DNA of 59,641 nucleotides from Acidobacteriota bacterium (GTDB taxonomy: Bacteria > Acidobacteriota > Thermoanaerobaculia > Thermoanaerobaculales > Sulfomarinibacteraceae): the NCBI GenBank assembly GCA_013152895.1, contig JAADFN010000104.1, forward strand, positions 1 through 59,641. The letters run 5' to 3'. The position numbers and the translations under genes are program-made. Below, piece after piece: positions 15 through 56,479 of this stretch. Position 1 is the first letter of the stretch, and each line of letters starts with the position of its first letter. The notes beneath the pieces are model-generated. The model was not told the origin of the DNA. It searched no databases and saw only the letters and a list, made by a program, of their open reading frames with translations.

Positions 15-91
15 TGGTGCGCCCGGCGCGATTCGAACGCGCGGCCTTCAGATCCGGAGTCTGACGCTCTATCCAGCTGAGCTACGGGCGC
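15..91 (-). tRNA. tRNA-Arg (anticodon CCG)
   Basis: The reverse complement reads GCGCCCGTAGCTCAGCTGGATAGAGCGTCAGACTCCGGATCTGAAGG...GTTCGAATC...CGGGCGCACCA. It has a 7-bp acceptor stem, anticodon loop CTCCGGA and an encoded CCA. Confidence 0.95.
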
Positions 92-94
92 ACA

Positions 95-170
95 TGGGGT
101 GGGCGATGGGATTCGAACCCACGGCCACAGGAGCCACAATCCTGTGCTCTACCATCTGAGCTACGCCCAC
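95..170 (-). tRNA. tRNA-His (anticodon GTG)
   Basis: The reverse complement reads GTGGGCGTAGCTCAGATGGTAGAGCACAGGATTGTGGCTCCTG...GGGTTCGAATCCC...CCCACCCCA. It has anticodon loop TTGTGGC, the extra 5' G(-1) typical of tRNA-His and an encoded CCA. Confidence 0.95.
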
Positions 171-184
171 CGTACCTGTTGATC

Positions 185-261
185 TGGTCCGCCTGAGAGG
201 ACTCGAACCTCTGACCCACGGATTAGAAGTCCGTTGCTCTATCCTGCTGAGCTACAGGCGG
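185..261 (-). tRNA. tRNA-Arg (anticodon TCT)
   Basis: The reverse complement reads CCGCCTGTAGCTCAGCAGGATAGAGCAACGGACTTCTAATCCGT...GGTTCGAGTCC...CAGGCGGACCA. It has anticodon stem ACGGA/TCCGT and loop CTTCTAA. Confidence 0.93.
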
Positions 262-282
262 GTCGTGTGGCTCCGTTCGGGA

Positions 283-359
<77 letters not shown>

Positions 360-1272: not shown

Positions 1273-2097
1273 TTAGTCAGATCCCCCGGGATCGAGATGG
1301 ACGACCTCGAGATGTTCCGGGGTGCCTCCAAGGATGTTCCGGGCGACCTTGAGGAAGTGTTCGGAGGCGTCGGTCAGGTGGATGAAGATCTCGCCGCGGC
1401 CGTGGCCGCCGGGCTCGAGCAGGGAGGGGTACGACTCCGCCACGGCATCGGCGACGCTGGACGCGGAATCAACAAGCTTCACACCCGGACCGGCGGTACG
1501 TTTCAACGAGGGGATGAGCAAGGGGTAGTGGGTACAGCCGAGGATCAGGGCCTGTGCGCCCCACTCCAGGAGCGGTGTCAGATAGGTCTGCGCGACCTGG
1601 TCGGTGATCGGATGATCGCCCCATCCCTCCTCGGCGAGAGGTACGAAGAGCGGGCAGGCGACGCCGCGCACGCTGACGGCGCCGTCAAGGCGGGCCAGCG
1701 CGCGCTGGTACGATCCCGAACGGATGGTTCCCTCCGTTCCGATCACGCCGATGCGGTGGACGCCGAGGGCAAGGGCGGCCCGCACGCCGGGCTCCACGAC
1801 GCCGGCCACGGGAACGGGTGACGCCTCGATGAGTTGGGCAAGGGCGAACGATGTCGCCGTGTTGCACGCGACCACGAGCAGCTTGACGCCGTGACGCAGC
1901 AGGTGGGTGGCAGCCTTGAGTGCGTACCTTTGCACGGTTCCCGCAGACTTTGTGCCGTACGGCAACCGCGCGGTGTCACCGAGATAGAGGAACGATTCGC
2001 CGGGCAGCCTGCGGTGCAGGGCGCTGAGAACTGTCAAGCCCCCGACGCCGGAATCGAAGATCCCGATGGGACGGCGGGCGGCGATTCGTTCCCTCAT
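1273..2097 (-). CDS. murI: Glutamate racemase
   Basis: Motifs are IGIFDSGVGGLTVL, VVACNTA and LGCTHYPL. The ORF-track start at 2214 is trimmed to the ATG at 2097, which forms an ATGA overlap with the stop of the upstream gene. Confidence 0.9.
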   Translation of the reverse strand: MRERIAARRPIGIFDSGVGGLTVLSALHRRLPGESFLYLGDTARLPYGTKSAGTVQRYALKAATHLLRHGVKLLVVACNTATSFALAQLIEASPVPVAGVVEPGVRAALALGVHRIGVIGTEGTIRSGSYQRALARLDGAVSVRGVACPLFVPLAEEGWGDHPITDQVAQTYLTPLLEWGAQALILGCTHYPLLIPSLKRTAGPGVKLVDSASSVADAVAESYPSLLEPGGHGRGEIFIHLTDASEHFLKVARNILGGTPEHLEVVHLDPGGSD

Positions 2098-2654
2098 TGC
2101 GCCGCGATGAACGACTTGTTGAGCGCGAGCGGCCGGGAGAGGTCGAGGTGGCCCGTCAGGGTCTGGACTTCGTGATCGTCGAAGAGCAGCTGCACGCCCT
2201 TGAGCTCCTGGCAATTCAGCAGCACGGAGTCGACGATGCTGTAGGCCAGCATGAGCTCGTTGAAGCTGCCGGTCAGCGGCTGTGGAGGGCTGCTCAGATC
2301 GACGTACGCGTTGCCCCTGCCATCGATGAAAACGTCGAGGAGCCGGGCCGGGTACCCGGCGACGGGAAGCAACCGTGCCGTCGGTCCGGCAAGAAGTTGC
2401 GAGACGATGACCCGGACGCGCTGGTTGAGCTCGGCCGGCAACGGAACGGTGCGCAGCTCGGGGTGAAGCGCCCCGTCCGTTCCCGGAAAGAGAAGCATGA
2501 CGCGCGTTTCCGGTGCGGGTGTCGGCGTCGGCGCGGGTACCGGCGTCAGCGATGCCGTGGTTTTCCTGGCGAAACCGCCCGGCCTGAGAGCCCAGAACGC
2601 GATGGCGGCCAGCGCGACCAGCACGGCGACGATGAGAAGGACGCGCCGGATCAT
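2094..2654 (-). CDS. GerMN domain-containing envelope protein
   Basis: It has an N-terminal hydrophobic anchor (MIRRVLLIVAVLVALAAIAF), a Pro/Thr linker and a GerMN-like domain (LHPELRTVPLP...VIVSQLLAGP...VFIDGRGNAYVDLS). It is ATGA-coupled to the amidase upstream and to murI downstream. Confidence 0.7.
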   Translation of the reverse strand: MIRRVLLIVAVLVALAAIAFWALRPGGFARKTTASLTPVPAPTPTPAPETRVMLLFPGTDGALHPELRTVPLPAELNQRVRVIVSQLLAGPTARLLPVAGYPARLLDVFIDGRGNAYVDLSSPPQPLTGSFNELMLAYSIVDSVLLNCQELKGVQLLFDDHEVQTLTGHLDLSRPLALNKSFIAAQ

Positions 2655-4087
2655 GAGCTCGACCGGAGGAACTCCTCGATCCCGCGGGCGAGCGCTTCCG
2701 CGAGGCGTTGCCGGTACGCAGGATCCGCGAGCTGGCCAGCCTCCGCCGGATTGGAGAGGAATCCCATTTCGACTAAGACCGCGGGCATCGTGGCGCCGGT
2801 CAGGACGACGAACGGCGCCTGCTTGACGCCGCGGTCAGGCAGGTCGAGGAAGCTGTTCAGCTGCCGCTGGATATCGAGCGCCAGCAGCGCGCTGCGGTTG
2901 AGCACCCGCGCCTGCGCCATGTCCCAGAGGATAAGGTCGAGCTGCGAGCCGCCGCGGCGTCCGGGGGCGCCGGCCGCGTTTTCCTTGCGCGCCGTCTCGG
3001 CAGCGTGCGCGTCCGTGGCGTCGTGCAGGCTCATGTAGTAGGTCTCGGCGCCCCGGACCGAGCTGACCGTCGAGGCGTTCGCGTGCAGCGAGATGAACGC
3101 GACGGCGTCGAGCCGGTTGGCCAGCGCGGTGCGGTCCGTCAACGCGCGCGTCTCGTCGCCCGCTCGCGTCAGGCGGACCACGTACCCATCCCGCTTGAGA
3201 AGCGTCGCAAGACGCGTGGCAACGGCCAGTGAAACGACCTTTTCCTCCAGACCGGAGGCCGAGACGGCGCCGGAATCGGCCCCCCCATGCCCCGGGTCGA
3301 TGACGATCGTTGGACGTTTCGGCTTTCGAGCCCGCGCGACCGGCGTCGGGACCGGCGTTGGCGGGCGACGTCCGACCTCCACGATGACGCGGTCAGGACC
3401 GGTCAGCTGGTGCGAGGCGAGCAGGCCCTGGCCGGGAGCCAGCTCGATCTTGAGCGTATTGGCCGCGGCTCGGATCGCCACGATGCGGCGGGACCTCATC
3501 GGGAGGGAGCCGTCAAGCTGGGGCCGGGCATCCGAGAAGTGAACGAGGAGCTCCCGGCCGGCGCCGGCCGTGACCGTGACCGCTACGTGCCGGCTCAGCG
3601 TCAGGACGAGCGTCGTCGTCGTCCCGAAATCCGCCGCCGCCGCACGAACGGTGACGACGGGCGCCACCATGGCGCCCGGGGCAATTCTGTAGCCAGCTCC
3701 CGAGCGTTCGAGGTGGTACGCAAAGGGGCTCAGAATGACCCGGTCGAGATAGCTCTCGGAAACGGCGATCCCGCCCGGCGAGACGACCGCCGCGTCGTTC
3801 GTCTTCTCCAGCTCACCATCGACGAGGGCGAATCTCACCTGCGGTGTGATCTGGATTTGATGGTTCCCAAGCTGGATGACGTAGGTCCCCGCCGCCTGGG
3901 AATACCCGGCCTGGGCGCCGATCAGCTGCAACACGGGCATCAGCTCGATGCGCGACCCGAAACGGGGCACCTGCGCCACGTTCCCGTCAAAGGAAAACGT
4001 GACGGTTCCCGCCGGCTGAGCCTGCGCCGGCAACGCGGCGAGAAACAGAACTACAAGAAGAGCCAGGATATGTGTGATGCTTCGCAT
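2651..4087 (-). CDS. N-acetylmuramoyl-L-alanine amidase (Amidase_3 family, AmiC-like)
   Basis: A signal peptide (MRSITHILALLVVLFLAALPAQA) starts at the ATG at 4087. The C-terminal catalytic domain carries IVIDPGHGGADSGA and FISLHANA. The longer ORF-track start at 4240 would read through ssrA. Confidence 0.88.
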   Translation of the reverse strand: MRSITHILALLVVLFLAALPAQAQPAGTVTFSFDGNVAQVPRFGSRIELMPVLQLIGAQAGYSQAAGTYVIQLGNHQIQITPQVRFALVDGELEKTNDAAVVSPGGIAVSESYLDRVILSPFAYHLERSGAGYRIAPGAMVAPVVTVRAAAADFGTTTTLVLTLSRHVAVTVTAGAGRELLVHFSDARPQLDGSLPMRSRRIVAIRAAANTLKIELAPGQGLLASHQLTGPDRVIVEVGRRPPTPVPTPVARARKPKRPTIVIDPGHGGADSGAVSASGLEEKVVSLAVATRLATLLKRDGYVVRLTRAGDETRALTDRTALANRLDAVAFISLHANASTVSSVRGAETYYMSLHDATDAHAAETARKENAAGAPGRRGGSQLDLILWDMAQARVLNRSALLALDIQRQLNSFLDLPDRGVKQAPFVVLTGATMPAVLVEMGFLSNPAEAGQLADPAYRQRLAEALARGIEEFLRSSS

Positions 4088-4096
4088 ATAAAAACA

Positions 4097-4446
4097 TGGT
4101 GGAGGCGGTGGGAGTCGAACCCACGTCCGAGGAACTCCGGCCATCGGTATCTCCGTGCGCAGCCCGTTGATTAAATCTCGTCCCTCCGGAGGGCAAAACG
4201 GGCACCCCACCGTCGGAACCAGCCCGTATATCTTAGCCATCGCTTCCGGGCGCCACGATAGCGCAGCCTGCCAAACGTCGCCAACCCCAGACCGGCAGGC
4301 GGAGCCTCGGGGCCGGCGTGGCTACCTAGGCAGCCAGTGCGTATTCAGCGTTGGCAGCTGTAAGCTTCCACCTGTTTTACGAGGCGATGGACCTCGGCAC
4401 GCTGCCAATGGCCGGACTTGTTCCCCGTCGAACCCGGTACGCCCCC
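4097..4446 (-). ncRNA. ssrA: tmRNA (transfer-messenger RNA)
   Basis: The reverse complement starts GGGGGCGTACCGGGTTCGACGGGG and ends GTGGGTTCGACTCCCACCGCCTCCACCA. An internal tag frame GCT GCC AAC GCT GAA TAC GCA CTG GCT GCC TAG, encoding A(A)NAEYALAA, lies at 4326..4358. Confidence 0.95.
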
Positions 4447-8792: not shown

Positions 8793-8919
8793 AGAGCCCA
8801 GCGTGGAGCCCGGGTCCTGCGCATCGCCGACCTCCGAACCGTGTCAGGCCCGGAAGGGAGCAGCACTTAGGGGGAACCCGGCGAGTGCCGCAGCTCACCT
8901 GGGCTCCACGCTGGGCTCT
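8793..8919 (+). ncRNA. ffs: Signal recognition particle RNA (small 4.5S-type)
   Basis: A 19-bp perfect terminal helix pairs AGAGCCCAGCGTGGAGCCC (8793..8811) with GGGCTCCACGCTGGGCTCT (8901..8919). It encloses the conserved domain IV sequence GTCAGGCCCGGAAGGGAGCAGC. The E. coli 4.5S equivalent is GGUCAGGUCCGGAAGGAAGCAGCC. Confidence 0.9.
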
Positions 8920-10616: not shown

Positions 10617-10632
10617 TGGCACACGCTATGCA
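10617..10632 (+). promoter_or_regulatory. Sigma-54 (RpoN) -24/-12 promoter candidate
   Basis: TGGCAC-ACGCT-ATGCA matches the consensus TGGCAC-N5-TTGCA, with GG and GC at the exact spacing. It lies about 140 nt upstream of the GcvH-like CDS. Confidence 0.5.
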
Positions 10633-10771
10633 ATTGCCGTGGGCGGAGGTTGAAGATGAACCGCAGGAACCACAACCGGAACAACAGCGACCCGGCGGAG
10701 GCGCGGTCCAGATCGACCTCGAAAACACGCATGACCAGGTTGGCCAGGGGCCTGACCTGGGGGAGGCAATC

Positions 10772-11446
10772 ATGGCAGCCGTTCTCGTAATCCTGACGAT
10801 CGTGGCGTTCGTGGCGGTGGACGCGATGCACCTGTGGTTGAAGCGCCGCAGTGCTGAAGCGGTAACCGGTGTGGCTCCGGTGAAGGCGTTTGCCGGGGTT
10901 CGCGTGCCACGGGGGCTTTTCCTTGATGACGCACACAGTTGGGCTCGTTTGACGGAGTCCGGTGAGCTGAACGTCGGTGTCGACGAGTTCTTGACACAGG
11001 CGCTTGGCGGGGCGGACCGGGTGGACCTGCCCGAGCCGGGTACAAGGGTCGAGAGGGGGCAGACGCTGGCGACGGTGTGGCGCCAGGGCCGCAAGCTCGA
11101 GGTTGCAGCACCCGTCAGCGGCCGGGTCGTGGCGACGAACGAGACCGTTGCGTACCACCCGGAGTCGGTGGAGGCGGATCCGTACGGGTCTGGATGGCTG
11201 GCGCGCCTCTGGCCCGTGGATCATGCCGAGGCTTTGAAGGGCCTGCGGGTGGGCGAACGTGCGGCGAAGTGGCTGGAGCGCGAGGTCCAGAGGTTTGCCG
11301 AGTTCCTGTCGCAGAAGACCTCTCCCGAGCTCGTTGGCGTCATGCTTCCCGATGGCGCTCACCCGGTCGTCGGCGCGGCGCTCAACCTCGATGACGCCGC
11401 CTGGCAAGAGTTCCAGGATCAGTTCGCCCGCAACTCCCAGAGTTGA
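10772..11446 (+). CDS. Membrane-anchored glycine-cleavage-H-like (GcvH family) domain protein
   Basis: The ATG at 10772 follows a GGGAGG ribosome-binding site. An N-terminal TM helix (MAAVLVILTIVAFVAVDAM) is followed by a GcvH-like fold (HSWARL...VGVDEF...VDLPEPGTRVERGQTLATV...APVSGRVVATN...DPYGSGWLARL) and a C-terminal extension of about 70 aa. Confidence 0.7.
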   Translation: MAAVLVILTIVAFVAVDAMHLWLKRRSAEAVTGVAPVKAFAGVRVPRGLFLDDAHSWARLTESGELNVGVDEFLTQALGGADRVDLPEPGTRVERGQTLATVWRQGRKLEVAAPVSGRVVATNETVAYHPESVEADPYGSGWLARLWPVDHAEALKGLRVGERAAKWLEREVQRFAEFLSQKTSPELVGVMLPDGAHPVVGAALNLDDAAWQEFQDQFARNSQS

Positions 11447-15533: not shown

Positions 15534-15956
15534 CTACTTTTGCGGAAATGCTCCCAGCTTGACGCCCCTGGGCAAGGCCTTGCGGGCGTGGCACGCCTCA
15601 CACGTCGTCGGACCGCCGTTTTCCTGATGACAGCCCACACAACGCGTGTGGTACGCCACTTTCAGGCTAGGAATGTTGGGGGAGTTGGAGTTGAACACCT
15701 TCTTGGAATGGCACGTGTCGCACGTTGTCGGCTCCCCGTCGGTGTGGTGATGACACGTCGTGCACTCGCCGGCCATGTCCGCATGTTCCGCGTGTGGAAA
15801 CGTCACCGGCCCGAACCAGTGGCTGAGACCGTCGATGGTGATCGTCTCAGGCACCACGGGCTTGGCCTTCGCGGTGGGCTTTCCCGCCGTCGAGACCGCG
15901 GCAAAACCAAGAACGATACACACGACAACAAGCACGATCTGGAAAAAACGTTTCAT
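15534..15956 (-). CDS. Periplasmic tetrahaem cytochrome c3 family protein
   Basis: The ATG at 15956 follows a GGAGGAG ribosome-binding site. The signal peptide is MKRFFQIVLVVVCIVLGFAAVSTA. There are four CXXCH motifs (CTTCH, CDTCH, CVGCH, CEACH) in about 115 mature residues. Confidence 0.88.
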   Translation of the reverse strand: MKRFFQIVLVVVCIVLGFAAVSTAGKPTAKAKPVVPETITIDGLSHWFGPVTFPHAEHADMAGECTTCHHHTDGEPTTCDTCHSKKVFNSNSPNIPSLKVAYHTRCVGCHQENGGPTTCEACHARKALPRGVKLGAFPQK

Positions 15957-16040
15957 GGGACTCTCCTCCGTCAGCAACCTTGATCGGGCCGCACGAGGCG
16001 TCGGCCTTTCGCCGCGGTGAAAGCGGACACGACATGGCGG

Positions 16041-16595
16041 TTACATTCGCTCGCCGTCTGCAGGAACCCCGATCGTGTCCGAGCAGGACTCGCAAAAGGC
16101 GGCATCCTTGAGATCCACCTGCTCCGGGAGCCGCGAAGCTCCCATTGCGCACCACGGAACCCGGCAATGCACGAGGCCCAACGTATGTCCGAGCTCGTGC
16201 AAGACCTCCTTGGTGAGACGTTCCCGCGTTCGCACGGGGTCTCGTGGATCCCCCTGGAACTCGGGCCGCAACCGGTGTAACGATGCAATGCCGACCGGGC
16301 CGCCGAGCTGGGCGGCGCCGAAAACGTGCGTGAACACGGGAAGGAACAGGTCGACCTGTGCGATACCGATCCGGTGCACGCCATCCTGGATCGGAATATC
16401 GAGAAGGTCCTGGAGCAACGCCGTCGCCAGGTATTGGCGCCGCCGGCCATCGAAAGCGATCGCAGGGTCGATCTCGCGCGGCGAGATCCAGACCGCATGC
16501 GCCAGGTACCGCGACAGGTCCGCCCGCAGGGCTCGCAGCACGGCGGGGAGCACCGCCCCCACACGTACGAGCTCTACTGACCATGATCCCGGCAC
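16041..16595 (-). CDS. Archaemetzincin-like zinc metallopeptidase (peptidase M54)
   Basis: The motif is HELGHTLGLVHC followed by PWCAM and FCESC cysteine pairs. The GTG start at 16595 is 10 nt downstream of the response-regulator stop. Confidence 0.78.
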   Translation of the reverse strand: MPGSWSVELVRVGAVLPAVLRALRADLSRYLAHAVWISPREIDPAIAFDGRRRQYLATALLQDLLDIPIQDGVHRIGIAQVDLFLPVFTHVFGAAQLGGPVGIASLHRLRPEFQGDPRDPVRTRERLTKEVLHELGHTLGLVHCRVPWCAMGASRLPEQVDLKDAAFCESCSDTIGVPADGERM

Positions 16596-16605
16596 CGATC
16601 ATCTC

Positions 16606-17955
16606 CTACCGTCTCTCGATTCCGTACTTGCGCATCTTGTTGTACAAGGTCACGCGGTCGATGCCGAGCTTCTTGGCCGCGTGGGTGATGTTGAAATCCT
16701 CGAGCTGCAGCACCTTGAGGATGTGCCGCTTCTCGATCGCTTGAAGCGACAGATCGTCAGGCTCAGGCTCGTTGCCAAAGGTCTGGGTATGAATCGGCAA
16801 GTACTCAGGTTTGATTTCCCCTTCATGGCAGACAACGAGCGCACGTTCAACGGCGTTGGCCAGCTCCCGGACGTTCCCCGGCCAGTCGTACGCGAGCATC
16901 ATCGCCTTGGCCTCGGCGGAGAATCCGGTCACCTTCCGGCCCATCGCCGCCGCGAACTTCCGGAGGTAATGTTCGGCGATCGGCAGAATATCCTCCCGTC
17001 TCTCCCTCAGGGGAGGGATATCGATCTGGAAAACGTTGATCCGGTAGTACAGGTCTTGCCGGAACGTCTCCTCGCGAACCGCCTCCTCGAGGTCGCGGTT
17101 CGTCGCGCAGACGACCCGGAAATCAACGGGTATCTCCTGGACGCCTCCAACCCGCGTGATCGTGTGCTCTTCCAGCGCCCGCAGCAGCTCGACCTGCACC
17201 TTGGGTGAGATCTCCCCGATCTCGTCCAGGAAAAGCGTGCCCCCGTCGGCGAGCTCCAGCTTCCCCTTCCGGCGGGACGTGGCGCCGGTGAACGATCCCT
17301 TCTCATGCCCGAACAGCTCGGATTCCAACACGCCTTCGGAAAGCGCCCCGCAGTTGACGGCAACCAGCGGCCCGAATGCGCGCGGGCTCTTGGCATGGAT
17401 CAACCGGGCGATCAGCTCCTTGCCGGTCCCGGATTCCCCGCGAATCAGCACCGTCGTATCCGTGGGCGCGACAGATTCGACCAGCTCGAGGACCCGGCGC
17501 ATCTCGCGGCTCGTGCCCTCGACGATCTGGGGGCTGATGCCGGCGATCCGCTGTTTGAGGGCGACGTTCTCTTCCTTGAGCCGGATCTTTTCGCATGCCT
17601 TCTCCACGACGTGGGAGAGCTCCTCGGGATCGAACGGCTTGACGAGGTAGTCGTACGCACCTTCCTTGAGCGCCTGCACGGCCGTTGCAACCGAGGCGTA
17701 GGCGGTGACAAGAATCACGGCGACGTCGGGATCGACCTGGCGGATACGCCTCAGCAGCTCGAGTCCGTCCATTCCGGGCATCTTGATATCCGTGATGACA
17801 ACATCGACGTGCCGGCGTCCCAGGACGGTCAGCGCCTCCTTGCCGCTCGATGCCGTGACGACTTCGTAGCCGTCCTCCGTGAACCAGCTTGCCAGTGATT
17901 CGCGAACGTGGAGCTCATCGTCGACGATCATCAGGCTTGGAGCTCTGCTGCTCAT
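16606..17955 (-). CDS. Sigma-54-dependent response regulator (NtrC family: REC + AAA+ + Fis-type HTH)
   Basis: The REC domain carries DVVITDIKMPGMDGLELL. The AAA+ domain has Walker A GESGTGKE and the sigma-54 contact loop GSFTGA. The C-terminus has an HTH (ITHAAKKLGIDRVTLYNKMRKYGI). It is ATGA-coupled to the kinase. Confidence 0.93.
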   Translation of the reverse strand: MSSRAPSLMIVDDELHVRESLASWFTEDGYEVVTASSGKEALTVLGRRHVDVVITDIKMPGMDGLELLRRIRQVDPDVAVILVTAYASVATAVQALKEGAYDYLVKPFDPEELSHVVEKACEKIRLKEENVALKQRIAGISPQIVEGTSREMRRVLELVESVAPTDTTVLIRGESGTGKELIARLIHAKSPRAFGPLVAVNCGALSEGVLESELFGHEKGSFTGATSRRKGKLELADGGTLFLDEIGEISPKVQVELLRALEEHTITRVGGVQEIPVDFRVVCATNRDLEEAVREETFRQDLYYRINVFQIDIPPLRERREDILPIAEHYLRKFAAAMGRKVTGFSAEAKAMMLAYDWPGNVRELANAVERALVVCHEGEIKPEYLPIHTQTFGNEPEPDDLSLQAIEKRHILKVLQLEDFNITHAAKKLGIDRVTLYNKMRKYGIERR

Positions 17956-19550
17956 GAGACTACCTCCCCGTCGATCTGCGGCGGTTTGGGCGGAAATGTC
18001 AGGATGAACCGGCAGCCCTGGCCAGGCGCCGTGTCGAGGTCAATATGCCCCCCGTGCCGTTGCACGATTCCGAAGACCACCGAGAGGCCGAGACCGACGC
18101 CCGAGCCCTCCTCCTTGGTCGTGAAGAATGGCTCGAAAGCGTGCGCCACCACCTCTGGCGGCATTCCCGGGCCGTTGTCGGCGACCTCGACAACAACGCC
18201 CCCGTCCTTGGACCGTCGCGTCGCCAGGCGAACGATACCACCCTCTTCGAGCGCCTGGGCGGCGTTGAGCAACAGCGCCATCAGCGCCTGCTGGATCTGA
18301 GCGGAGTCGGCGACAATCATCGGCAGACCATCCGCAAGCTCCGTCGTGGCTTCAACGTTGTTGAGCTCGAGCTTGTGGTGGACCAGGAAGAGGGCTTTTT
18401 CGACAACGCGGTTGATATCGGTGGGGCCAAACTCCCCGCCGCGCCGCCTGGAAAATGCGAGGAGCTGGGAGACGATCTCCCCGCAGCGCGTCGCCTCGGA
18501 GGCGATCGACTCGAGGTATTCCAGGTTCTGCTTGCACTCCTCGGTCAGCTCGTGGGTTCGGAAGCGGCGGACGAGGATCTTCGCGTAGGTGACGACGCTG
18601 GATAGCGGGTTGTTGATCTCGTGGGCGACGACGGCTGCGAGCTTGCCGAGAGAGGCCATCTTCTCCACCTGGAGAATCTGGTCCTGTGCATGTCTGAGCT
18701 CGGCCGTCTTTTGTTGCACCCGCTCCTCCAGGGTTTGCGCCCATTCGAGAAGCTCGCCACGGGCGGCTTCCAGGTCGCGGGCCATGCGGTTGAAGTTCCG
18801 GGCCAGCACCCCGATCTCGTCGTCGGTGACCTCGGGCGCACGTACGGAGAGATCGCCGGCGGCAATCTGCTGGACCTGTTGAATCAGGTTATGCACGGGT
18901 CGATGGACCATGCGTCGCACGGCGGCCACCGTGATGCCAACCACCAGGAGGATACCGAAGAGGCTCGCCAGCAGCAGCTCCGCAGCGCTGGCGCGGCGGG
19001 CACGGTCGTACGGGGCAAGCACCATGTTGACGTCGAGCACGCCGAGCAGCTTGTTCCCCGCGCTGTGAACATGGCAGGAGGCGTTTGCACAATCACTCTC
19101 GTTCCGGATCGTCTTCGTGATGCTCAGGATACGTCCCCGGTTCCGCGAAAGAATCCGGGCCTGGGCCTCCGCGGGCATCTTGTGCGAAGAGGCGCCAGGT
19201 TGATGGCACGAGAGGCACTGCTGCGAATGAAGATCGAGCGTCGTGCCGATCTCCGACTTCTTCGTCGAGTACGCGATCTTGCCACCCTTTTCGATAATCC
19301 GGATCCGTTCAATGCCCCGTTGGCTGGCGAGCGTATCGATCGTGGCCTGGATCTGCTCGCGGTCGTTGTGAAGCATCGCTTCGCGGGTCGCACGTGCGAC
19401 GAGGTCGGCGATCTGGGCGCCGTTCAACCGCAGGATCCGGGTCGTCGCCCGCTCCTGGATCTGGAGGTTGAGCCATGCCGCCGTCCCGAAAACAACGACC
19501 AGAGCGCATGTGATCAGCAACGTCAATTTGCCGGCTACGCTATGTTTCAT
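17952..19550 (-). CDS. Sensor histidine kinase (2 TM, periplasmic domain with c-type haem motifs, HAMP, HisKA, HATPase)
   Basis: The TM helices span about aa 9-27 and 190-212. The periplasmic domain contains CLSCH (aa 112-116) and CANASCH (CX4CH, aa 154-160). The H-box is VVAHEINNPL, and the ATP-binding domain carries the G-boxes DNGPGM and GSGVGLGLS. Confidence 0.9.
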   Translation of the reverse strand: MKHSVAGKLTLLITCALVVVFGTAAWLNLQIQERATTRILRLNGAQIADLVARATREAMLHNDREQIQATIDTLASQRGIERIRIIEKGGKIAYSTKKSEIGTTLDLHSQQCLSCHQPGASSHKMPAEAQARILSRNRGRILSITKTIRNESDCANASCHVHSAGNKLLGVLDVNMVLAPYDRARRASAAELLLASLFGILLVVGITVAAVRRMVHRPVHNLIQQVQQIAAGDLSVRAPEVTDDEIGVLARNFNRMARDLEAARGELLEWAQTLEERVQQKTAELRHAQDQILQVEKMASLGKLAAVVAHEINNPLSSVVTYAKILVRRFRTHELTEECKQNLEYLESIASEATRCGEIVSQLLAFSRRRGGEFGPTDINRVVEKALFLVHHKLELNNVEATTELADGLPMIVADSAQIQQALMALLLNAAQALEEGGIVRLATRRSKDGGVVVEVADNGPGMPPEVVAHAFEPFFTTKEEGSGVGLGLSVVFGIVQRHGGHIDLDTAPGQGCRFILTFPPKPPQIDGEVVS

Positions 19551-19579
19551 GGCTCTTCCCCTGTACCTCGGACCCTATC

Positions 19580-20746
19580 TTATTTCAGGAGCTCCACGTA
19601 TGGATCGGCAGGCTTCGGATGCTCTATCGGGCCCTCGGGGAAGACCGGCAGGTACCGGACGGCCAACCCGAAAAGACCCATGCCGATGGCGATGACGCCG
19701 ATCGAGATAACGAACTCTGACCAGAGCGGGTGGTAGCTGACGCCCGTTCCAAGCTGAAAGGCGGTCGTGGAAACGTTCATCCGGTCGAAGACCATCCCCA
19801 GAACGACCATGAACTGCGCGCCGGCAAGAACCAGCGGCTTGTGGCGCAACCGCTCGCTCATGAGGATGATCATGGGCACGATCATCAGGAGCCCGACCTC
19901 GACCCAGAAGAAGAGTGCGCCAAGATCGAACCTGAACGCGTACTTGAGCGAGTGCCGGACGACCAGGTCTTCAAACCGTATGACAAGGTAGAACAACAGC
20001 ACGAACGCCGTGGCCTTGCCGAGATCGACCAGGATCTCCGGCTCGAGTCTCTTGCCAAAGGCGCGGAAGGAGAGGAACGACTCGACGTTGACCATGGCCA
20101 GACCGAGGGCGATCGCAGAAATGAAGAAGAGATACGGAAGAATGGGTGAGTACCACAGCGGGTGCAGCTTCTCGGGGACGATGACGTAGAGCGTTCCAAG
20201 CGACGACTGGTGCATGGTGGACAGCAGCACGCCAAGAATGCAGAGAACGGGAGTGAGATACCGGTGCCACCAGTGGACCGTGTGTTTCTTCCCGAGCCGT
20301 TCCAAGACCAGGGGCAGAAACTCCAAGAAGAGCACCGTGGTGTACAGCATGACGCACCAGGCGAGCTCGAACATGGCCGAATGATCGTTCCACATGATCA
20401 GCGGGTGCCAGACGTTCCAGGGACGGCCAAGATCGACCAGCAGCGCCATGACGACCATCAGGTAGCCGAGGAACGCGGTCAACACGGTGGAACGGACGAT
20501 GGGCCTGAACTTTTCGAGGTGGAAGATATAGACGATGGCCGTGATCGTGAAACCACCCGCCGCCAGGGCGACTCCCGACATCACGTCGAACCCGATCCAG
20601 AGCCCCCACGGCATGAGGTCCTTCAAGTTGGAGACGGCTCCGAGCCCCCCTGTGAAACGTCTGATGAACACGAGGGCAAACAAGGCCAAGATGACGACGT
20701 ACACGGCTCTCCAGAACGTAAGCCGCGGAACCTTGAGACTACTCAT
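19580..20746 (-). CDS. NrfD/PsrC/HybB family polytopic quinone-interacting membrane subunit
   Basis: This 388-aa protein has about 10 TM helices. The N-terminus (FWRAVYVVILALFALVFIRRFTGGLGAVSNLKDLMPWGLWIGFDVMSGVALAAGGF) is typical of NrfD-family subunits. Its start overlaps the FeS gene stop by 8 nt. Confidence 0.85.
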   Translation of the reverse strand: MSSLKVPRLTFWRAVYVVILALFALVFIRRFTGGLGAVSNLKDLMPWGLWIGFDVMSGVALAAGGFTITAIVYIFHLEKFRPIVRSTVLTAFLGYLMVVMALLVDLGRPWNVWHPLIMWNDHSAMFELAWCVMLYTTVLFLEFLPLVLERLGKKHTVHWWHRYLTPVLCILGVLLSTMHQSSLGTLYVIVPEKLHPLWYSPILPYLFFISAIALGLAMVNVESFLSFRAFGKRLEPEILVDLGKATAFVLLFYLVIRFEDLVVRHSLKYAFRFDLGALFFWVEVGLLMIVPMIILMSERLRHKPLVLAGAQFMVVLGMVFDRMNVSTTAFQLGTGVSYHPLWSEFVISIGVIAIGMGLFGLAVRYLPVFPEGPIEHPKPADPYVELLK

Positions 20747-21524
20747 GATCGTCCTCCGTCGTGTGGTGCTCCGTCGTGTGGTCCTCCGTCGTGTGGTGCT
20801 CGACCTCGGCGACCTTATTCTTTCGCGCGGTGAGCCACATCATGCCGCCGAGGAAGGTTGCCCAGGGAACGATGATCTCTGGAAGCTTCCCGAGAACGTT
20901 CCACGTCAGCATGGGCATGTCGTGCTTGGGAAGGTTCGCCGGCAGGTGATCCTGGATGGGGGTCCTCGTGAGGAGCATCAAGACGCTGGTACCACCAACC
21001 TCTTTTTCTCCAAAGACCTCGGGGTAGTACCTGTGCGGATGTTCCTTGAGCCTGCGGTGCGCCTCGGCCAGCATGTCTTCCCGCCGTCCGAACGTCGTTG
21101 CGCCCGTCGGACAGACGCTGGCGCACGCCGTCGGGAGCCCCTTGGAGACCCGATGGATACACATGTCGCACTTGCGGATCCGCGGGTTCACCGAGTGCCA
21201 CTCGTATTTCGGAATCTCGAACGGGCACGCCATCATGCAGTAACGGCAGCCGATGCACCGGGTGTGATCCCACGTGACCGGTCCGAGCGCATGCTTCTGG
21301 AGCGCCCCAACCGGACACACGGACGCGCAGGTCGGATCTTCACAGTTCATGCAGAAATGCCGCATGTACGTGCCCTTGCCGAGATCCTGCACCCAGTTGA
21401 ACGAGTTGGCATCGAGCCGCGTCGGCTTGTGCGGCCTCTGGCCGTGCTCCGCCTGGCATGCCTGTTCGCAGGCGCCGCAGCCGATGCACTTGCTTTGATC
21501 GTAAAGAACTGCGAAGACCGACAT
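20739..21524 (-). CDS. 4x[4Fe-4S] ferredoxin-type subunit (NrfC/HybA/DmsB family) with a C-terminal TM anchor and His/Thr/Glu repeat tail
   Basis: There are four Cys clusters: CIGCGACEQAC, CMNCEDPTCASVCP, CIGCRYCMMACP and CDMC...CASVCP. The N-terminus (MSVFAVLYDQSKC) has no twin-arginine signal. The C-terminal helix is IIVPWATFLGGMMWL and the tail is HHTTEDHTTEHHTTEDDHE. Confidence 0.88.
   Translation of the reverse strand: MSVFAVLYDQSKCIGCGACEQACQAEHGQRPHKPTRLDANSFNWVQDLGKGTYMRHFCMNCEDPTCASVCPVGALQKHALGPVTWDHTRCIGCRYCMMACPFEIPKYEWHSVNPRIRKCDMCIHRVSKGLPTACASVCPTGATTFGRREDMLAEAHRRLKEHPHRYYPEVFGEKEVGGTSVLMLLTRTPIQDHLPANLPKHDMPMLTWNVLGKLPEIIVPWATFLGGMMWLTARKNKVAEVEHHTTEDHTTEHHTTEDDHE
20754..20798. 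repeat. 15-bp tandem repeat x3 inside the FeS gene 3' end
   Basis: CTCCGTCGTGTGGT(G/C) occurs three times in tandem. On the minus strand it encodes the HHTTE/DHTTE/HHTTE pentapeptide repeats. Confidence 0.85.
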
Positions 21525-21573
21525 GGACCCCCCTTTCTCTCCGGCGTGCTGACGCCACGCCCAGACCGCCTCC

Positions 21574-21589
21574 TGCAGATATTGTACCA
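21574..21589 (-). promoter_or_regulatory. Sigma-54 (RpoN) -24/-12 promoter candidate for the FeS/NrfD/kinase/regulator operon
   Basis: The minus strand reads TGGTAC-AATAT-CTGCA, with GG and GC at consensus spacing and two flanking mismatches to TGGCAC-N5-TTGCA. It lies 50-65 nt upstream of the FeS ATG at 21524. Confidence 0.45.
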
Positions 21590-21969
21590 GATTTCACAAG
21601 GATGAAAACCTCTTCTATCTCAACACCTTCAACGATGCCCCCTCACTCGGACGATGAATTTCGCCACAGTGCTTGTGCAGGACCGCCACATCGATTATCG
21701 CTAATATACTGAAATTACGATGTTTGTATGTGATGAAAATGTCAACTGTTGAAGGTGTCGAAATCTTACACTCCCGGAGCCGCACCGAGACCAACGAGGA
21801 AAGTCCACGGATGGGAACTTTCAGGTTAATCTTACGTACTGTGACAGGAGGGACCCAGCCGCAATCGCGGGGAACCGCGGCACGATGCGAGGTTGGGGCG
21901 CCGGAGTGGGTGGTGCCGATATAATCGGTGTATCGCAACGGCGCGAGCGATCGGACAGGAGGAGCCACG

Positions 21970-36730: not shown

Positions 36731-39481
36731 TTATTTCAGGGCATCGAGGATCTCCGTCGCATTGTTGTTGGCATCGTAGAGAAGGGACATGAGGTAGAGG
36801 TGGTTGTGGAAGCCGTTGCTCTCGTCGGATTCGGCGTACGTCAGGTTGTGCCGAGCCTCGTCGAGCTTGGCTTTCAGCGTATCGTTGTCGACCCCTTCAA
36901 GGGCCGTGGCGGCCGCTTCCACGTTCTTCTGTGCCTGCGCATCGAGTGCCTTGAAGTTGTCCCGCCAGAGGTCGATGATGAGATTGAGATCATCGATCGT
37001 ATCGAGCTCGGAGTGGCACTTGGTGCACGAAATCGTGTCGCTCCCGTCCGGTTCATGGACGGCGACGGCCCAGGAGTGGCCGTGGAGCATGTTCGAGGTG
37101 CTGCCGTCCACGGAGCTGGTGTACATGTGGCAGTCGACGCACGTGGCGCCCGGCATGGTGACCTGGTTTGGAACGCCGGTTCCGCCGGTGCCCTGCTCGA
37201 TGTTGTAACTCAGATGGTCGGTATCGGCGAAGCGCAGGTTGCCGTGGCACTGGCCGCACAGCTCGCTCGCGTCCATCGCCTCGTGCTCGCCGGTTGAAGA
37301 GTTGAAGTAGGAGGGCGTGGACGGATCGTGCTGATCGTGGCACGCCGTGCAGGAAACGTTGGGCCATTCCGACGTGTTGGCCGGCGCGGTGTCGGCGGTG
37401 AACTGTCCGTCGGTGGTTGTGAAGAAGTAGCTCAGCGCGTCGGCCTCGCTCATTCCGCCGTTCGCCAGCACGGCCGTCGGCGCGTGGCAGGCGATACAGT
37501 TTTCGGCATCCGAGCCGTTGATCACCTCGTCCGGCGTTTGCCCGACGCGTTCTTCGGAGAGCTCGTCCGCGACGTCCGCCTGCGTCTTGGCGTGCTTGCT
37601 CGTCTTCCACGCGTCATAGGTCAGGTGATCGGTGTCCGCGAAGCGCAGGCTGCCGTGGCACTGGCCGCACAGCTCGCTCGAGCTCGACATCGGCTCGTGC
37701 TTGCCGGTCGAGGAGTTGAAGTAGGCCGGATGGGCCGGATCGTGCTGGTCGTGGCAGGTGATGCACGAGACGTTCGGCCAGTCGGACGTGTGGGCGGGCG
37801 CGGTGCTGTCGGAGAAAGCGCCGTCCTCGGTCGTGAAGAAGTACCCGAGGGCCTTCGTCTCGGTCATGCCCCCGTTGGCGAGGATCGCGGTCGGAGCGTG
37901 ACACGCGATGCAATTCTCGGCATCATCGCCATGCAGCACGTCGTTCGGCGTCTGTCCGACGCGCTCTTCGGAAAGCTCGTCCGCCACGTCGGCCTGGGTG
38001 CTCGCGTGGGGACCGCCCGCCCAGGTGTTGTAGACGACGTGATCCGTGTCGGCAAAGCGCAGGTTGCCGTGACACTGGCCGCACAGCTCGCTCGAGCTGG
38101 ACATCGGCTCGTAGGCCTTCGTTGAAGAGTTGAAGTAGGCCGGTGTGCTGGCGCCGTGCTGGTTGTGACAGACGATGCACGACACGTTCGGCCACTGGGC
38201 GGTGTTGTCGGGCGCCGTATCCGCCGTGAACACGCCGCCCGTGGTGGTAAAGAAGTGGTCCAGCGCCTCGGTCTCGTTCATCCCGCCGTTTTTCAGCACG
38301 GCCGTCGGGGCGTGGCAGGCGATGCAGTCTTCGGCATCGGCGCCGTTGATGACGTCGTCCGGCGTCTGCCCGACGCGCTCGTCGGAGAGCTCGTCCGCGA
38401 CGTCCGCCTGGGTCTCGTGATGCACACCCGCGGGACACGCCTCTACGGCCGGATGATCCGGCGCGTTGATCTTGCTATCGCAGTGGCACTGGCTGCAAAG
38501 CTCATCGGACTTCTGTGTATCGAGATCGTTCGGGTTGATGATCTTGGCCGGATCGCCGCCTCCGAGGATGTGCTCCGATCCAGGCCCGTGGCACGACTCG
38601 CACTGCACGTTGACGACGTCGAGGATCCCGTCGTGGTTCACGTCGAAGTAGCTCGGATCGCCCGGTTCGACGAGCGTGGCGGGGTAGGGCTTGTAGGTCC
38701 ATTCGCCCGACGTGGTCTGGTGCAGGTCGCGAACCCCGGACGCGTGACAGGAGGCGCATTTTTCGGCGAACGAGCTCGAGTTTCCGGAAGCCAGGGTCGC
38801 CGAATCGGTGGTCAGATCGAATCTCGGCAGGTCCGTGCTCGGGTCGTACCACGCGTCCGGGTTGTACAGCGTGTACCGTCCGGTCCGCTCGTCAAACTCG
38901 ATCGGGGACACGTAGTTACCGGTCGAAAGGGAGTCGAAAGCATCGGTCACCGGAACGCGCACCACGAACATCTGGGCGGCCTTGCCGTTGCCGCCGATGG
39001 TGAAGACCACCGGCATCTTGTCCTGGCCGATCGTGATGAAGTACCGTCCGTTCTCGACCGACAGGATTGGTGCGTTCGGCTTGTAGGGGTCGAAGACCGA
39101 AGATATCTTGTTGAAGTCGAGCCCCTCGGCGAAGTCATCGACGCCGTCGCCGTCGTAATCGGCGATCACGCCCTCGCCGCGTTTCATCGAGTACTGGGTC
39201 AGCGCCTGCCGCAGCTCGTGAGCGTGGGTGTTCTCGCGCCAATCGGCCTCGTCCTGGTGGCACGCGATGCAGTATTCAGCGCCCACCTCGACGCCGGTCT
39301 GGAGTTGGTCCATCGTGTAGGTCAGCTGAAGCTTCTGGATGACATCGTTGACGTTGACGGTTCGCTTGACGTGACGAACGCCCCGGATGGCGTGGCTGCT
39401 CCGGAGCTGCGGTCCCGCAGCCGAAGCGATCGTTGCGATAGCCGCGACCACGAGAGTCCCTAAAACTGCCTTTCGTCTCAT
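36731..39481 (-). CDS. Secreted multihaem c-type cytochrome (15 CXXCH motifs)
   Basis: The ATG at 39481 follows GGAGG. The signal peptide is MRRKAVLGTLVVAAIATIASAAG. I counted 15 CXXCH motifs (CIACH x4, CGQCH x3, CASCH, CESCH, CSQCH, CIVCH, CITCH, CTACH, CVDCH, CTKCH). The ORF-track start at 39562 is trimmed. Confidence 0.9.
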   Translation of the reverse strand: MRRKAVLGTLVVAAIATIASAAGPQLRSSHAIRGVRHVKRTVNVNDVIQKLQLTYTMDQLQTGVEVGAEYCIACHQDEADWRENTHAHELRQALTQYSMKRGEGVIADYDGDGVDDFAEGLDFNKISSVFDPYKPNAPILSVENGRYFITIGQDKMPVVFTIGGNGKAAQMFVVRVPVTDAFDSLSTGNYVSPIEFDERTGRYTLYNPDAWYDPSTDLPRFDLTTDSATLASGNSSSFAEKCASCHASGVRDLHQTTSGEWTYKPYPATLVEPGDPSYFDVNHDGILDVVNVQCESCHGPGSEHILGGGDPAKIINPNDLDTQKSDELCSQCHCDSKINAPDHPAVEACPAGVHHETQADVADELSDERVGQTPDDVINGADAEDCIACHAPTAVLKNGGMNETEALDHFFTTTGGVFTADTAPDNTAQWPNVSCIVCHNQHGASTPAYFNSSTKAYEPMSSSSELCGQCHGNLRFADTDHVVYNTWAGGPHASTQADVADELSEERVGQTPNDVLHGDDAENCIACHAPTAILANGGMTETKALGYFFTTEDGAFSDSTAPAHTSDWPNVSCITCHDQHDPAHPAYFNSSTGKHEPMSSSSELCGQCHGSLRFADTDHLTYDAWKTSKHAKTQADVADELSEERVGQTPDEVINGSDAENCIACHAPTAVLANGGMSEADALSYFFTTTDGQFTADTAPANTSEWPNVSCTACHDQHDPSTPSYFNSSTGEHEAMDASELCGQCHGNLRFADTDHLSYNIEQGTGGTGVPNQVTMPGATCVDCHMYTSSVDGSTSNMLHGHSWAVAVHEPDGSDTISCTKCHSELDTIDDLNLIIDLWRDNFKALDAQAQKNVEAAATALEGVDNDTLKAKLDEARHNLTYAESDESNGFHNHLYLMSLLYDANNNATEILDALK
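37214..38413 (-). repeat. Three tandem ~414-nt (138-aa) coding repeats, each a tri-haem module
   Basis: Units start at ORF residues 384, 522 and 660 with TQADVADELS(D/E)ERVGQTP. Each contains CIACHAPTA, NVSC(I/T)xCH(N/D)QH and ELCGQCHGxLRFADTDH. Matching nucleotide landmarks recur every 411-414 nt. Confidence 0.9.
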
Positions 39482-39971
39482 TCCGACCTCCTTCTTGGGA
39501 TGGGGGAGGTACTCGAAAGGACCGCGCACGAGCGGAACGACAGGAATACCTCCCGGAAGCAATGGTGATACGTATCGGGATGCCTTGTCGAGATTTTGAA
39601 GGAATGTGCCGGTCCGGGCATCCGCGCCCGGGCGGACGGATGCGCAAAGGCCTCAAGCGATGGCGTGCTTTGAACCTGCATTATTCTCGCATTGTTCGCG
39701 GGAAGTGGCTGGTTTGCGAAATTGCACATATAATCACAAGCTGTTTCCCACTTGCCCTTCCTGGGATAACTCCCATATGTAATCTAGATCCGGCCTTGAA
39801 GGATGTCAAGATATTACTATGTAGTCATTTAGCGAATCATGGGCTTCTGGATGTCCGGCACACCTTGGCTCACGCACTCCGGGGATTATTCTGCGACAAG
39901 GCCGCGTTCTTGCTTCTATCAGTACTCTGGTCGGCCGGGGATGCGGGCTGGAAGTTGCGGAGGTGCGAGAG

Positions 39972-55986: not shown

Positions 55987-56279
55987 TCCGGGGGAGTCCG
56001 TGCCGGGTTTCCATATCAGACCCAGTGTACCGTGGTACGCCACGCCGGCCACGTGGTTCTTCGGCTTGCCTCCCGTGCATTCTCGCCGCCGCCTCGCATC
56101 CCGAGGCGCCCTTCACACCGATGCGGCTCCGTGCGCGAACCGGACCAGGCCACACGGCGGCGCTGCGCCAACGCCGGCGGAATCGAGAGGATCGGCAACC
56201 GTCGACGTGTTCGAGGCACGCGTCCAGCCCCCTTCCCGGCGGGGCCGCTTGATCTGTCAGGCGGAAAGTCTTATCGTAC

Positions 56280-56462
56280 GCGTAACGGAACGGCGAAGGG
56301 AAGCCGGTGGAAATCCGGCACGGCCCCCGCCACTGTGACCGGGGACGGACCGTTCATGAGCTCGGCTCGGCCACTGGCCGGCTCGATCCGCAAGGGTTGA
56401 CCGGCTGGGAAGGCGAACGGATCCGGTTGATCCGGAAGTCAGGAGACCTGCCGTTCCGACAC
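56280..56462 (+). promoter_or_regulatory. Cobalamin (B12) riboswitch
   Basis: The core GAAGGGAAGCCGGTGGAAATCCGGCACGGCCCCCGCCACTGTGA and the B12 box AGTCAGGAGACCTGCC are present. P1 pairs CGGAACGGC (56286..56294) with GCCGTTCCG (56450..56458). It ends 20 nt upstream of the TonB-dependent receptor ATG. Confidence 0.88.
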
Positions 56463-56479
56463 GAAACGGGAGGTTTCTC

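Follow-up and report, generated by a model that had tools for sequence, protein, structure and literature searches.

A conserved FeS/NrfD redox cassette with its own haem sensor kinase, sigma-54 activator and archaemetzincin: a putative self-regulated respiratory module

A 59,641-nucleotide (nt) stretch of DNA from an Acidobacteriota bacterium (contig JAADFN010000104.1; hereafter the window) encodes, in one run of genes, an iron-sulfur (FeS) protein, an NrfD-family membrane subunit, a putative haem-c sensor histidine kinase, an NtrC-type activator, an archaemetzincin (peptidase M54) and a tetrahaem cytochrome c3. The FeS-NrfD-kinase-activator-archaemetzincin cassette is conserved and widespread rather than a local accident. 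It is read here, at a probability of about 0.55, as a self-contained, self-regulated respiratory cassette, that is, a minimal Hmc/Nhc-type complex with its own control circuit; complex formation, activity, signal and circuit are the parts of this reading that we infer. The cassette and its associated elements occupy the following positions.

20739-21524, minus strand: FeS protein, 4x[4Fe-4S], HmcB/HybA/FdnH-like, 261 amino acids (aa), Pfam Fer4_11
19580-20746, minus strand: NrfD-family membrane subunit, HmcC/HybB-like, 388 aa, Pfam NrfD, with an 8-nt overlap with the FeS gene
17952-19550, minus strand: sensor histidine kinase, 532 aa, HAMP, HisKA and HATPase_c, after a 29-nt gap behind NrfD
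16606-17955, minus strand: NtrC-type response regulator, 449 aa, Response_reg, Sigma54_activat and HTH_8, with a 4-nt ATGA overlap with the kinase gene
16041-16595, minus strand: archaemetzincin (peptidase M54), 184 aa, Pfam Peptidase_M54, after a 10-nt gap behind the regulator
15534-15956, minus strand: tetrahaem cytochrome c3, 140 aa, Pfam Cytochrom_CIII, after an 84-nt gap behind M54
20754-20801, minus strand: 15-nt tandem repeat, 3.2 copies, encoding (H)HTTE(D) of the FeS C-terminal tail
21574-21589, minus strand: sigma-54-type -24/-12 element TGGTAC-N5-CTGCA, with GG-N10-GC spacing, 65 nt upstream of the FeS start codon
21732-21746 and 21748-21762: two adjacent GTTGA-N5-TCAAC-like dyads, candidate activator sites (upstream activating sequences), ~145-175 nt upstream of the -24 element
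10628-11446, plus strand: GcvH-like protein with a transmembrane (TM) anchor, Pfam GCV_H 4.2e-21, probable start at 10772 (MAAVLVILT...)

The six genes of the operon are co-directional and tightly packed behind a 403-nt divergent intergenic region (21525-21927), and the gaps between them do not exceed 29 nt, save for the 84 nt ahead of the c3 gene, whose ATG is preceded by a GGAGGAG ribosome-binding site. Since the upstream neighbour, a divergent ABC transporter gene, begins at 21928, the operon promoter is confined to the 21525-21927 gap. No intrinsic terminator is predicted within the operon or in the gap between the M54 and c3 genes, and Rfam and tRNA scans revealed no RNA genes in the operon region. 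The list of open reading frames (ORFs) and the sequence place the six genes, all of their gaps and overlaps and the TGGTAC-N5-CTGCA element where an initial annotation of this DNA had put them, and Pfam and NCBIfam profile searches return the domain names that it had given to every protein.

Relatives of the cassette were collected by searching metagenome contigs with an NrfD alignment (578 of 600 candidate stretches encoded a relative, and 80 loci were kept), while a single-protein NrfD scan of genome contigs yielded one locus only, L001. NrfD relatives number in the thousands, chiefly in metagenome-assembled genomes (MAGs) of Acidobacteria type. L001, a 93%-identical contig from an 'Acidobacteria bacterium' MAG, carries the same six genes. 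With presence counted only in loci that have enough flanking DNA, FeS adjoins NrfD in all 66 loci (66/66), the kinase is found in 46/48, the regulator in 33/37 and M54 in 29/33 (by another count, in 39/40 loci with room after the regulator); gene order is collinear in 25/27. In all, the cassette recurs, mostly in the same order, in ~90 loci. The initial annotation had observed that no catalytic subunit lies next to the FeS/NrfD pair, and had allowed that relatives might always carry one, in which case the window would represent a local rearrangement. No hydrogenase, molybdoenzyme or other catalytic subunit adjoins the cassette in any of the ~90 related loci, so the observation extends to the family and the pair is not one that always stands beside such a subunit. 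Likewise, there are no [NiFe] hydrogenase subunits or maturation genes in the window or in the 9-10 kb flanks, annotated with Pfam, of 10 of the related loci. Flanking genes vary from locus to locus, and a GcvH-like gene represents the sole other recurrent neighbour family; among the 80 metagenome loci it is the only large family of this kind.

Two circularly permuted forms of the cassette can be distinguished. In type A, to which the window belongs, the FeS protein carries no twin-arginine translocation (Tat) signal; in type B it does. Type-B loci (L086, L087 and L089) were located through kinase orthologues, 62-70% identical to the window kinase, and have the order kinase, regulator, M54, c3, FeS, NrfD, small membrane protein and GcvH-like protein. 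Their FeS and NrfD proteins are merely 37% identical to those of the window, and the FeS protein, of 286-297 aa, begins MDRREFLGLAG... or MDRRKFLELAG..., which are classical twin-arginine signals. The genes downstream of the cassette in L086 are those of the window (Trm112, Wzy_C and xseA), so that in related organisms both forms are found at one and the same chromosomal site. A conserved small single-helix protein (MEYYHYVNIFETKG...) is encoded after NrfD in type B only (L086 14093-14344, L087 10967-11167 and L089 15257-15523); this protein of 66-88 aa was considered as a missed member of the cassette and rejected, as neither the window nor the type-A loci encode a counterpart. In L087, the cassette is directly preceded (1306-4422) by genes for TusA, a cysteine desulfurase-like aminotransferase and a SelD-like protein, and a DsrC-like gene lies upstream in L004; no recurrent link was seen.

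A seventh conserved member of the cassette had escaped the initial annotation, as had the Tat-plus permuted form. The seventh member is the GcvH-like gene, which lies directly upstream of FeS in most type-A loci (L003, L088, L090 and ~40 metagenome loci), after c3 in L091 and after NrfD in type B. The orthologue in the window stands ~4 kb off, on the other strand, beyond xseA, xseB and ispA. The protein has an N-terminal TM helix followed by basic residues, and its GcvH-like domain is predicted to be cytoplasmic. A function as a lipoyl carrier was rejected because the lipoyl-lysine is not conserved, a result that serves as a lead only, the Escherichia coli reference sequence being approximate; the column aligned to its K65 is mostly Gly, and K or R is common two positions away without being invariant.

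Among the redox proteins, the FeS protein contains four Cys motifs at residues 13, 58, 90 and 119, enough for 4x[4Fe-4S], and ends in a hydrophobic TM helix followed by RKNK and a His-rich acidic tail. The tail, on the cytoplasmic side, is variable: the copy number of its repeat differs, and it is shorter, in the 93%-identical L001. In NCBIfam, the protein scores 218.7 bits against HmcB (cut-off 420) and 196 bits against HybA (also below cut-off), with an alignment that begins at profile position 37-40, the signal region being missing; its best solved relative is FdnH (1kqf_B). NrfD scores 319.6 bits against HmcC (cut-off 550) and 313.7 bits against HybB (below cut-off), with no match to the Protein Data Bank by phmmer, and has ten predicted TM helices with cytoplasmic N- and C-termini. 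Haem b in NrfD was considered and rejected, as conserved His pairs on both membrane sides are absent; the conserved His residues are H122, H179 and H195 in periplasmic loops and H76 at the cytoplasmic end of a helix. The c3 protein combines four CxxCH motifs with an N-terminal signal-like or anchor segment, scores 50.6 bits against HmcA (cut-off 400), and has as its best solved relatives the C-terminal domain of the 16-haem HmcA and the nine-haem cytochrome c. Its gene abuts or overlaps the M54 gene in L003, L004 and L091. Elsewhere in the family, NrfD carries a c7 domain as a C-terminal fusion, or FeS is immediately preceded by a gene for a 3-haem or 6-haem protein. Very large multihaem cytochrome ORFs also adjoin the cassette in L059 (13007-17005) and L054 (2151-5844); one such ORF in a relative, of 1332 aa with 42 CxxCH motifs, lies 303 nt after M54, and further cytochrome ORFs with 13 and 5 haems lie upstream of the cassette in some relatives.

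Because cytochrome partners recur in these several guises (c3, c7 fusions and 3- or 6-haem upstream proteins), c3, FeS and NrfD look, from their sequences, like a minimal Hmc/Nhc-type complex connecting periplasmic cytochromes with menaquinone. The description of the FeS/NrfD pair as an orphan thus holds as regards an adjacent catalytic subunit, but the pair is not truly orphan, since it has an HmcA/NhcA-like c3 as partner. The Hmc and Nhc systems of Desulfovibrio (HmcABC(DEF) and NhcABCD) likewise consist of a c3-family cytochrome, a C-anchored four-cluster FeS protein and a 10-helix NrfD; Hmc provides the best NCBIfam matches for all three redox proteins of the window, and the type-B order of cytochrome, FeS, NrfD and small membrane protein resembles theirs. 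The window differs in that its cytochrome has four haems rather than 16 or 9, its FeS protein has no Tat signal, HmcDEF are absent, all scores fall under the equivalog cut-offs, the redox genes are set among those for a haem kinase, a sigma-54 activator, an archaemetzincin and a GcvH-like protein, and the host is Acidobacteria-like, not Desulfovibrio. The HybA/HybB pair of E. coli hydrogenase 2 scores nearly as well as HmcB/HmcC, but HybO/HybC and maturation genes are found near none of the loci, and HybA differs from the window FeS protein with respect to the Tat signal. In public annotation, the NrfD orthologues are named 'Ni/Fe-hydrogenase cytochrome b subunit', a label that is probably a misnomer for this family.

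The FeS protein of the window lacks a Tat signal, as the initial annotation had stated. Its first start codon after an in-frame stop lies 12 residues ahead of the first Cys motif, and a signal peptide is impossible because the stop is just upstream of the start. The absence of an N-terminal extension is family-wide (~66 type-A relatives), and an alternative start that would provide a signal peptide was excluded, stops being present 10-20 codons before the first Cys motif in many loci. The missing signal might be explained if the module were the membrane anchor of an unlinked, Tat-exported catalytic subunit (a hydrogenase, formate dehydrogenase or similar) on which the FeS protein hitchhikes. 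FdnH, which has no signal of its own, is co-exported with FdnG in this manner, and by analogy hitchhiking on an unlinked Tat substrate is the simplest idea for export of the FeS protein. Such an anchor would offer the simplest account of the missing signal, and agrees with the best family and structure matches, HybA/HybB and FdnH. It is nevertheless judged unlikely: no such subunit is adjacent in the ~90 loci, including the 10 with annotated flanks, the recurrent neighbours are instead cytochromes, the GcvH-like protein and the two-component system, and the type-B FeS protein, which has its own Tat signal, still has no catalytic neighbour.

Several features point to a docking site for the FeS protein on the periplasmic face. 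Over 37 NrfD orthologues, K+R residues average 16.8 in the N-terminus, even loops and C-terminus, as against 5.8 in the odd loops, and the bias has the same sign in type-B NrfD, whose partner is Tat-exported. In NrfD-c7 fusions, an 11th TM helix stands before the haem domain; since they require it, helix 10 of NrfD must end in the cytoplasm. The FeS protein has RR/K-rich residues behind its C-terminal helix. The missing Tat signal therefore does not show that the FeS protein is located in the cytoplasm, and it may reach the periplasm by a route that involves neither a signal peptide of its own nor a co-encoded Tat partner. A contrary arrangement, in which a tail-anchored FeS protein stays in the cytoplasm and exchanges electrons with the GcvH-like protein, would have a model in SoeABC, one of the cytoplasm-facing NrfD complexes that exist (PMC8076601), and would suit both the signal-less FeS protein and the predicted cytoplasmic location of its most recurrent neighbour. 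It is considered highly improbable in view of the charge bias that NrfD shares with type B, the c7 fusions that put haems in the periplasm behind the 11th helix, the positive residues after the FeS anchor helix and the lack of a conserved lipoyl-lysine in the GcvH-like protein.

The kinase is laid out as TM helix, periplasmic PDC/PAS-like domain, TM helix, HAMP, HisKA and HATPase, with two c-haem motifs, CLSCH and CANASCH, between the two TM helices. These motifs are near-invariant, CxxCH being kept in 55/55 orthologues and Cx4CH in 54/55, and Met59, Asn62 and a few further residues are likewise invariant among the orthologues. Residues 1-218, modelled with AlphaFold2 (mean pLDDT 79.5), form a long N-terminal helix and then a five-stranded alpha/beta domain in the model, which Foldseek relates to the extracytoplasmic PAS/PDC sensors WalK, CitA and DctB and to the haem-c PAS domains of the Geobacter proteins GSU0935 and GSU0582. 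A word-index search with the sensor domain alone recovered two proteins only; an exhaustive HMMER search of a library clustered at 50% found 1,273 representatives at E <= 1e-3, the majority being kinases of the same length. The periplasmic region thus has the modelled features of a haem-c PAS/PDC-like sensor, with haem binding predicted, and the motifs between the TM helices agree with the haem-c sensor kinase that had been proposed for this gene. GSU0582 and GSU0935 are similarly periplasmic PAS/PDC-like sensors (Foldseek 3b42, E 1e-4; 3b47, E 2e-3), but contain one haem motif rather than two (CxxCH and Cx4CH), are ~20% identical to the window protein and have a chemoreceptor rather than a histidine kinase as output. 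The regulator consists of REC, AAA+ and Fis-type helix-turn-helix domains, with GSFTGA and the Walker A sequence GESGTGKE (Sigma54_activat 1.2e-70).

M54 is an archaemetzincin with its HELGHTLGLVH catalytic motif and Cys4 zinc site intact. The family motif is HExxHxxGx3Cx4CxM...CxxC (PMC13325395); in the window the metal motif reads HELGHTLGLVHCRVPWCAM...CESC, with a spacer of 16 residues rather than 17, and HExxHxxGxxH is kept in 38/40 orthologues. The protein scores 129.7 bits against NCBIfam archmetzin, just below the 145-bit cut-off, and its best solved relative is AmzA (2x7m, E 3e-17). It shares motif and fold family with AmzA of Methanopyrus and Archaeoglobus and with human AMZ1/2, but differs in being bacterial and in being fixed in a conserved operon beside a two-component system. 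A signal peptide is absent, and the protein is predicted to be cytoplasmic. In L016, L023, L045 and L064, M54 stays with a kinase-regulator pair that is detached from FeS/NrfD or inverted relative to it, and is therefore tied more closely to signalling than to the redox proteins. We know of no physiological substrate for any member of the archaemetzincin family; at a guess, the window protein processes or turns over a signalling or assembly component.

The association of M54 with the two-component system also accords with a different reading of the whole cassette, as a new redox-sensing device in which FeS and NrfD would wire the menaquinone pool to the kinase haems, the kinase would report quinone redox state to sigma-54 promoters, and M54 would act as an accessory that tunes or resets the signalling. 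The gene next after NrfD is that of the kinase in nearly all type-A loci, the kinase haem motifs are near-invariant, and most distant type-A loci have no haem-c protein in the cassette besides the kinase; it is because more than half of those loci are without another multihaem cytochrome that this explanation stays alive. Adjacency is weak evidence, however, as two-component systems commonly adjoin the operon that they regulate; moreover, many loci have dedicated c3 or c7 partners, and the type-B order of c3, FeS and NrfD is that of a classical enzyme operon with the kinase at the far end. A relay of this sort is to our knowledge without precedent and appears rather improbable; were it true, M54 would become the first bacterial archaemetzincin with an assigned role.

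TGGTACAATATCTGCA, at 21574-21589 on the minus strand, represents the sole match in the window to TGGYAYN5YTGCW. With a chance expectation of 0.13 in the window and at least one match in 13/100 shuffles, it is weak evidence alone, and the element is convincing only because it is conserved in relatives. The 28-nt promoter block CTTGTGAAATCTGGTACAATATCTGCA recurs letter for letter in L001, whose intergenic region has otherwise diverged. Motifs resembling TGGCAC-N5-TTGCA lie 50-72 nt ahead of the FeS start in L002, L006, L010, L026, L056 and L072; where a GcvH-like gene is at the head of the operon, the motif moves ahead of that gene (L003, L024, L030, L036 and L044). The promoter zones of 66 loci, some of them close relatives whose counts are not all independent events, contain 14 motifs with at least 9/11 matches against 1.4 expected (~tenfold) and 8 with at least 10/11 matches against 0.21 expected. 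In type B, near-perfect motifs precede the kinase (TGGCACGAGCGTTGCA in L086 and TGGCACGAGCACTGCA in L089), and a CTTGTGAAA flank precedes the promoter there and in the window; the same promoter therefore heads both permutations.

Upstream of the element, the two dyads at 21732-21762 have one and two mismatches to GTTGA-N5-TCAAC, and the block GTTGACATTTTCATCAC, which holds one of them, is conserved in L001 amid diverged DNA. Such dyads number 27 in 4,080 nt (17 loci with 240 nt upstream each), compared with 2.6 expected, and recur near -90, -160/-170 and -190. They are good candidates for binding sites of the regulator. Conservation and enrichment of the motif in relatives, together with the upstream dyads, uphold the earlier proposal of a sigma-54-type promoter heading the operon. 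As promoter and dyads lie upstream while kinase and regulator are encoded inside the operon, positive autoregulation is supported, and control by the co-encoded activator is likely. A conserved stem in the 5' untranslated region (GGCGTG...CACGCC) was considered as an additional element and rejected, as it folds no better than shuffles (z = -0.07).

Taken as a mechanism, the respiratory reading would run as follows. The c3 protein, the four-cluster FeS protein with its C-terminal helix anchor and a cofactor-less, 10-helix NrfD with a quinone site would assemble on the periplasmic face of the inner membrane, and electrons would move through the complex between the cytochrome pool of the periplasm and menaquinone/menaquinol. 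As to the direction, the nearby multihaem cytochromes slightly favour oxidation of quinol, with periplasmic or extracellular acceptors being fed. The kinase would sense the periplasmic redox state or a haem ligand via two covalent haems in its PDC/PAS-like domain and would phosphorylate the NtrC-type regulator. The regulator would then bind the GTTGA-N5-TCAAC dyads 90-190 bp upstream and open the sigma-54 promoter TGGTAC-N5-CTGCA, whereupon all six genes, those of the two-component system included, would be transcribed, resulting in positive autoregulation. The archaemetzincin and the GcvH-like protein would serve as cytoplasmic accessories.

Several observations weigh against this reading. 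With respect to the complex, the FeS, NrfD and c3 proteins all score under the NCBIfam cut-offs for HmcB, HmcC and HmcA, and are related proteins rather than equivalogs. In more than half of the distant type-A loci, the kinase apart, no multihaem cytochrome is encoded. The type-A cassette encodes no protein with a Tat signal that could take a cytoplasm-folded FeS protein to the periplasm. With respect to the promoter, a sigma-54 motif is present in the expected zones of merely 13-30 of the 66 loci at the thresholds used, the upstream region of L004 is AT-rich with no GG-N10-GC, rpoN is absent from the window, and the window motif can also be read as the extended -10 element of a sigma-70 promoter, TGGTACAAT.

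The last of these points raises the alternative that the operon is transcribed from an ordinary sigma-70 promoter (extended -10 TGGTACAAT, -35 TTTTCA), or from several promoters, and that the activator acts elsewhere. A consensus scan does give TTTTCA-16-TACAAT with a TG extension at 21581-21608, L004 has TACAAT at a comparable place where it has no sigma-54 motif, and the sigma-54 match of the window is not significant on its own. What the relatives keep, however, is GG/GC and TGGCAC/TTGC, not the -10 hexamer (e.g. TGGCACGACATTCGCA and TGGCACGAGCGTTGCA), and it is the sigma-54 motifs and upstream dyads that are enriched among them; sigma-70-like matches number 2 against a shuffle mean of 1.3 and are thus not commoner than in shuffled sequence. 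The short internal gaps, with 84 nt before c3 as the longest, and the lack of a predicted terminator argue against several promoters. This alternative is accordingly considered very unlikely, and the sigma-54 promoter is retained as part of the respiratory reading.

For the redox and regulatory halves of the respiratory cassette, separate likenesses exist in Geobacter. The Cbc4 system of G. sulfurreducens (CbcSTU), an uncharacterised, putative quinol:cytochrome c oxidoreductase, has three parts: a tetrahaem cytochrome, a protein with four [4Fe-4S] clusters and an integral membrane subunit (bioRxiv 10.1101/2025.04.14.648717). The redox module of the window is made up in the same way, and Cbc4 can be taken as its functional analogue, the two being likened by description, not by sequence; CbcS differs in being a membrane-anchored NapC/NirT-type protein rather than a c3, and a kinase, activator or protease encoded alongside is not reported for Cbc4. 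On the regulatory side, the closest precedent is cbcBA, which encodes an inner-membrane quinone:cytochrome module and is induced in response to redox conditions from a sigma-54 promoter by the REC-AAA+-HTH regulator BccR (bioRxiv 10.1101/2021.04.15.440034). In contrast to the window operon, CbcBA consists of a dihaem b and a seven-haem c protein rather than FeS/NrfD, BccR is divergently transcribed rather than encoded inside the operon, and neither a haem kinase nor a protease is present. A review of known NrfD complexes includes none with this genomic context (PMC8076601). Literature searches found no paper that joins an archaemetzincin with NrfD, and combining GcvH or Thermoanaerobaculia with NrfD produced nothing that describes the cassette. 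The initial annotation could match the arrangement to no described system, and the searches likewise found no published account of it: in the literature found, the arrangement of the cassette is undescribed, while its redox module is kin to the known Hmc/Nhc complexes.

Elsewhere in the window, a 943-aa cytochrome with 15 CxxCH motifs and an MtrC/MtrF-like domain II/IV is encoded ~15 kb from the cassette (36731-39562, minus strand), a sign that this genome may be equipped for extracellular electron transfer. Its gene adjoins that of a DUF438-hemerythrin-PAS protein, a possible oxygen or iron sensor (39963-41228, plus strand). A cobalamin riboswitch (56274-56469, plus strand) lies directly ahead of a TonB-dependent receptor gene (56480-58339, plus strand). 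The window also contains a transfer-messenger RNA (tmRNA) gene with the tag ANAEYALAA (4097-4446, minus strand), a signal recognition particle RNA gene (8808-8907, plus strand) and a four-tRNA cluster (15-359, minus strand), and can be regarded as ordinary chromosome because these are present.

NrfD/FeS modules are the standard means by which anaerobes link periplasmic redox chemistry to the quinone pool. Acidobacteriota and their relatives are abundant in soils, peat and sediments, and their physiology is poorly understood. If the respiratory model holds, the cassette would provide these organisms with a regulated entry or exit point between menaquinone and periplasmic cytochromes, and would be relevant to their iron and manganese reduction or other extracellular electron transfer. 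The defined promoter and candidate activator site are suited to reporter work, and the Tat-plus and Tat-less FeS proteins form a natural comparison for studying the export of anchored FeS proteins. For the archaemetzincins, a family with solved structures, the cassette gives a genomic-context clue to function.

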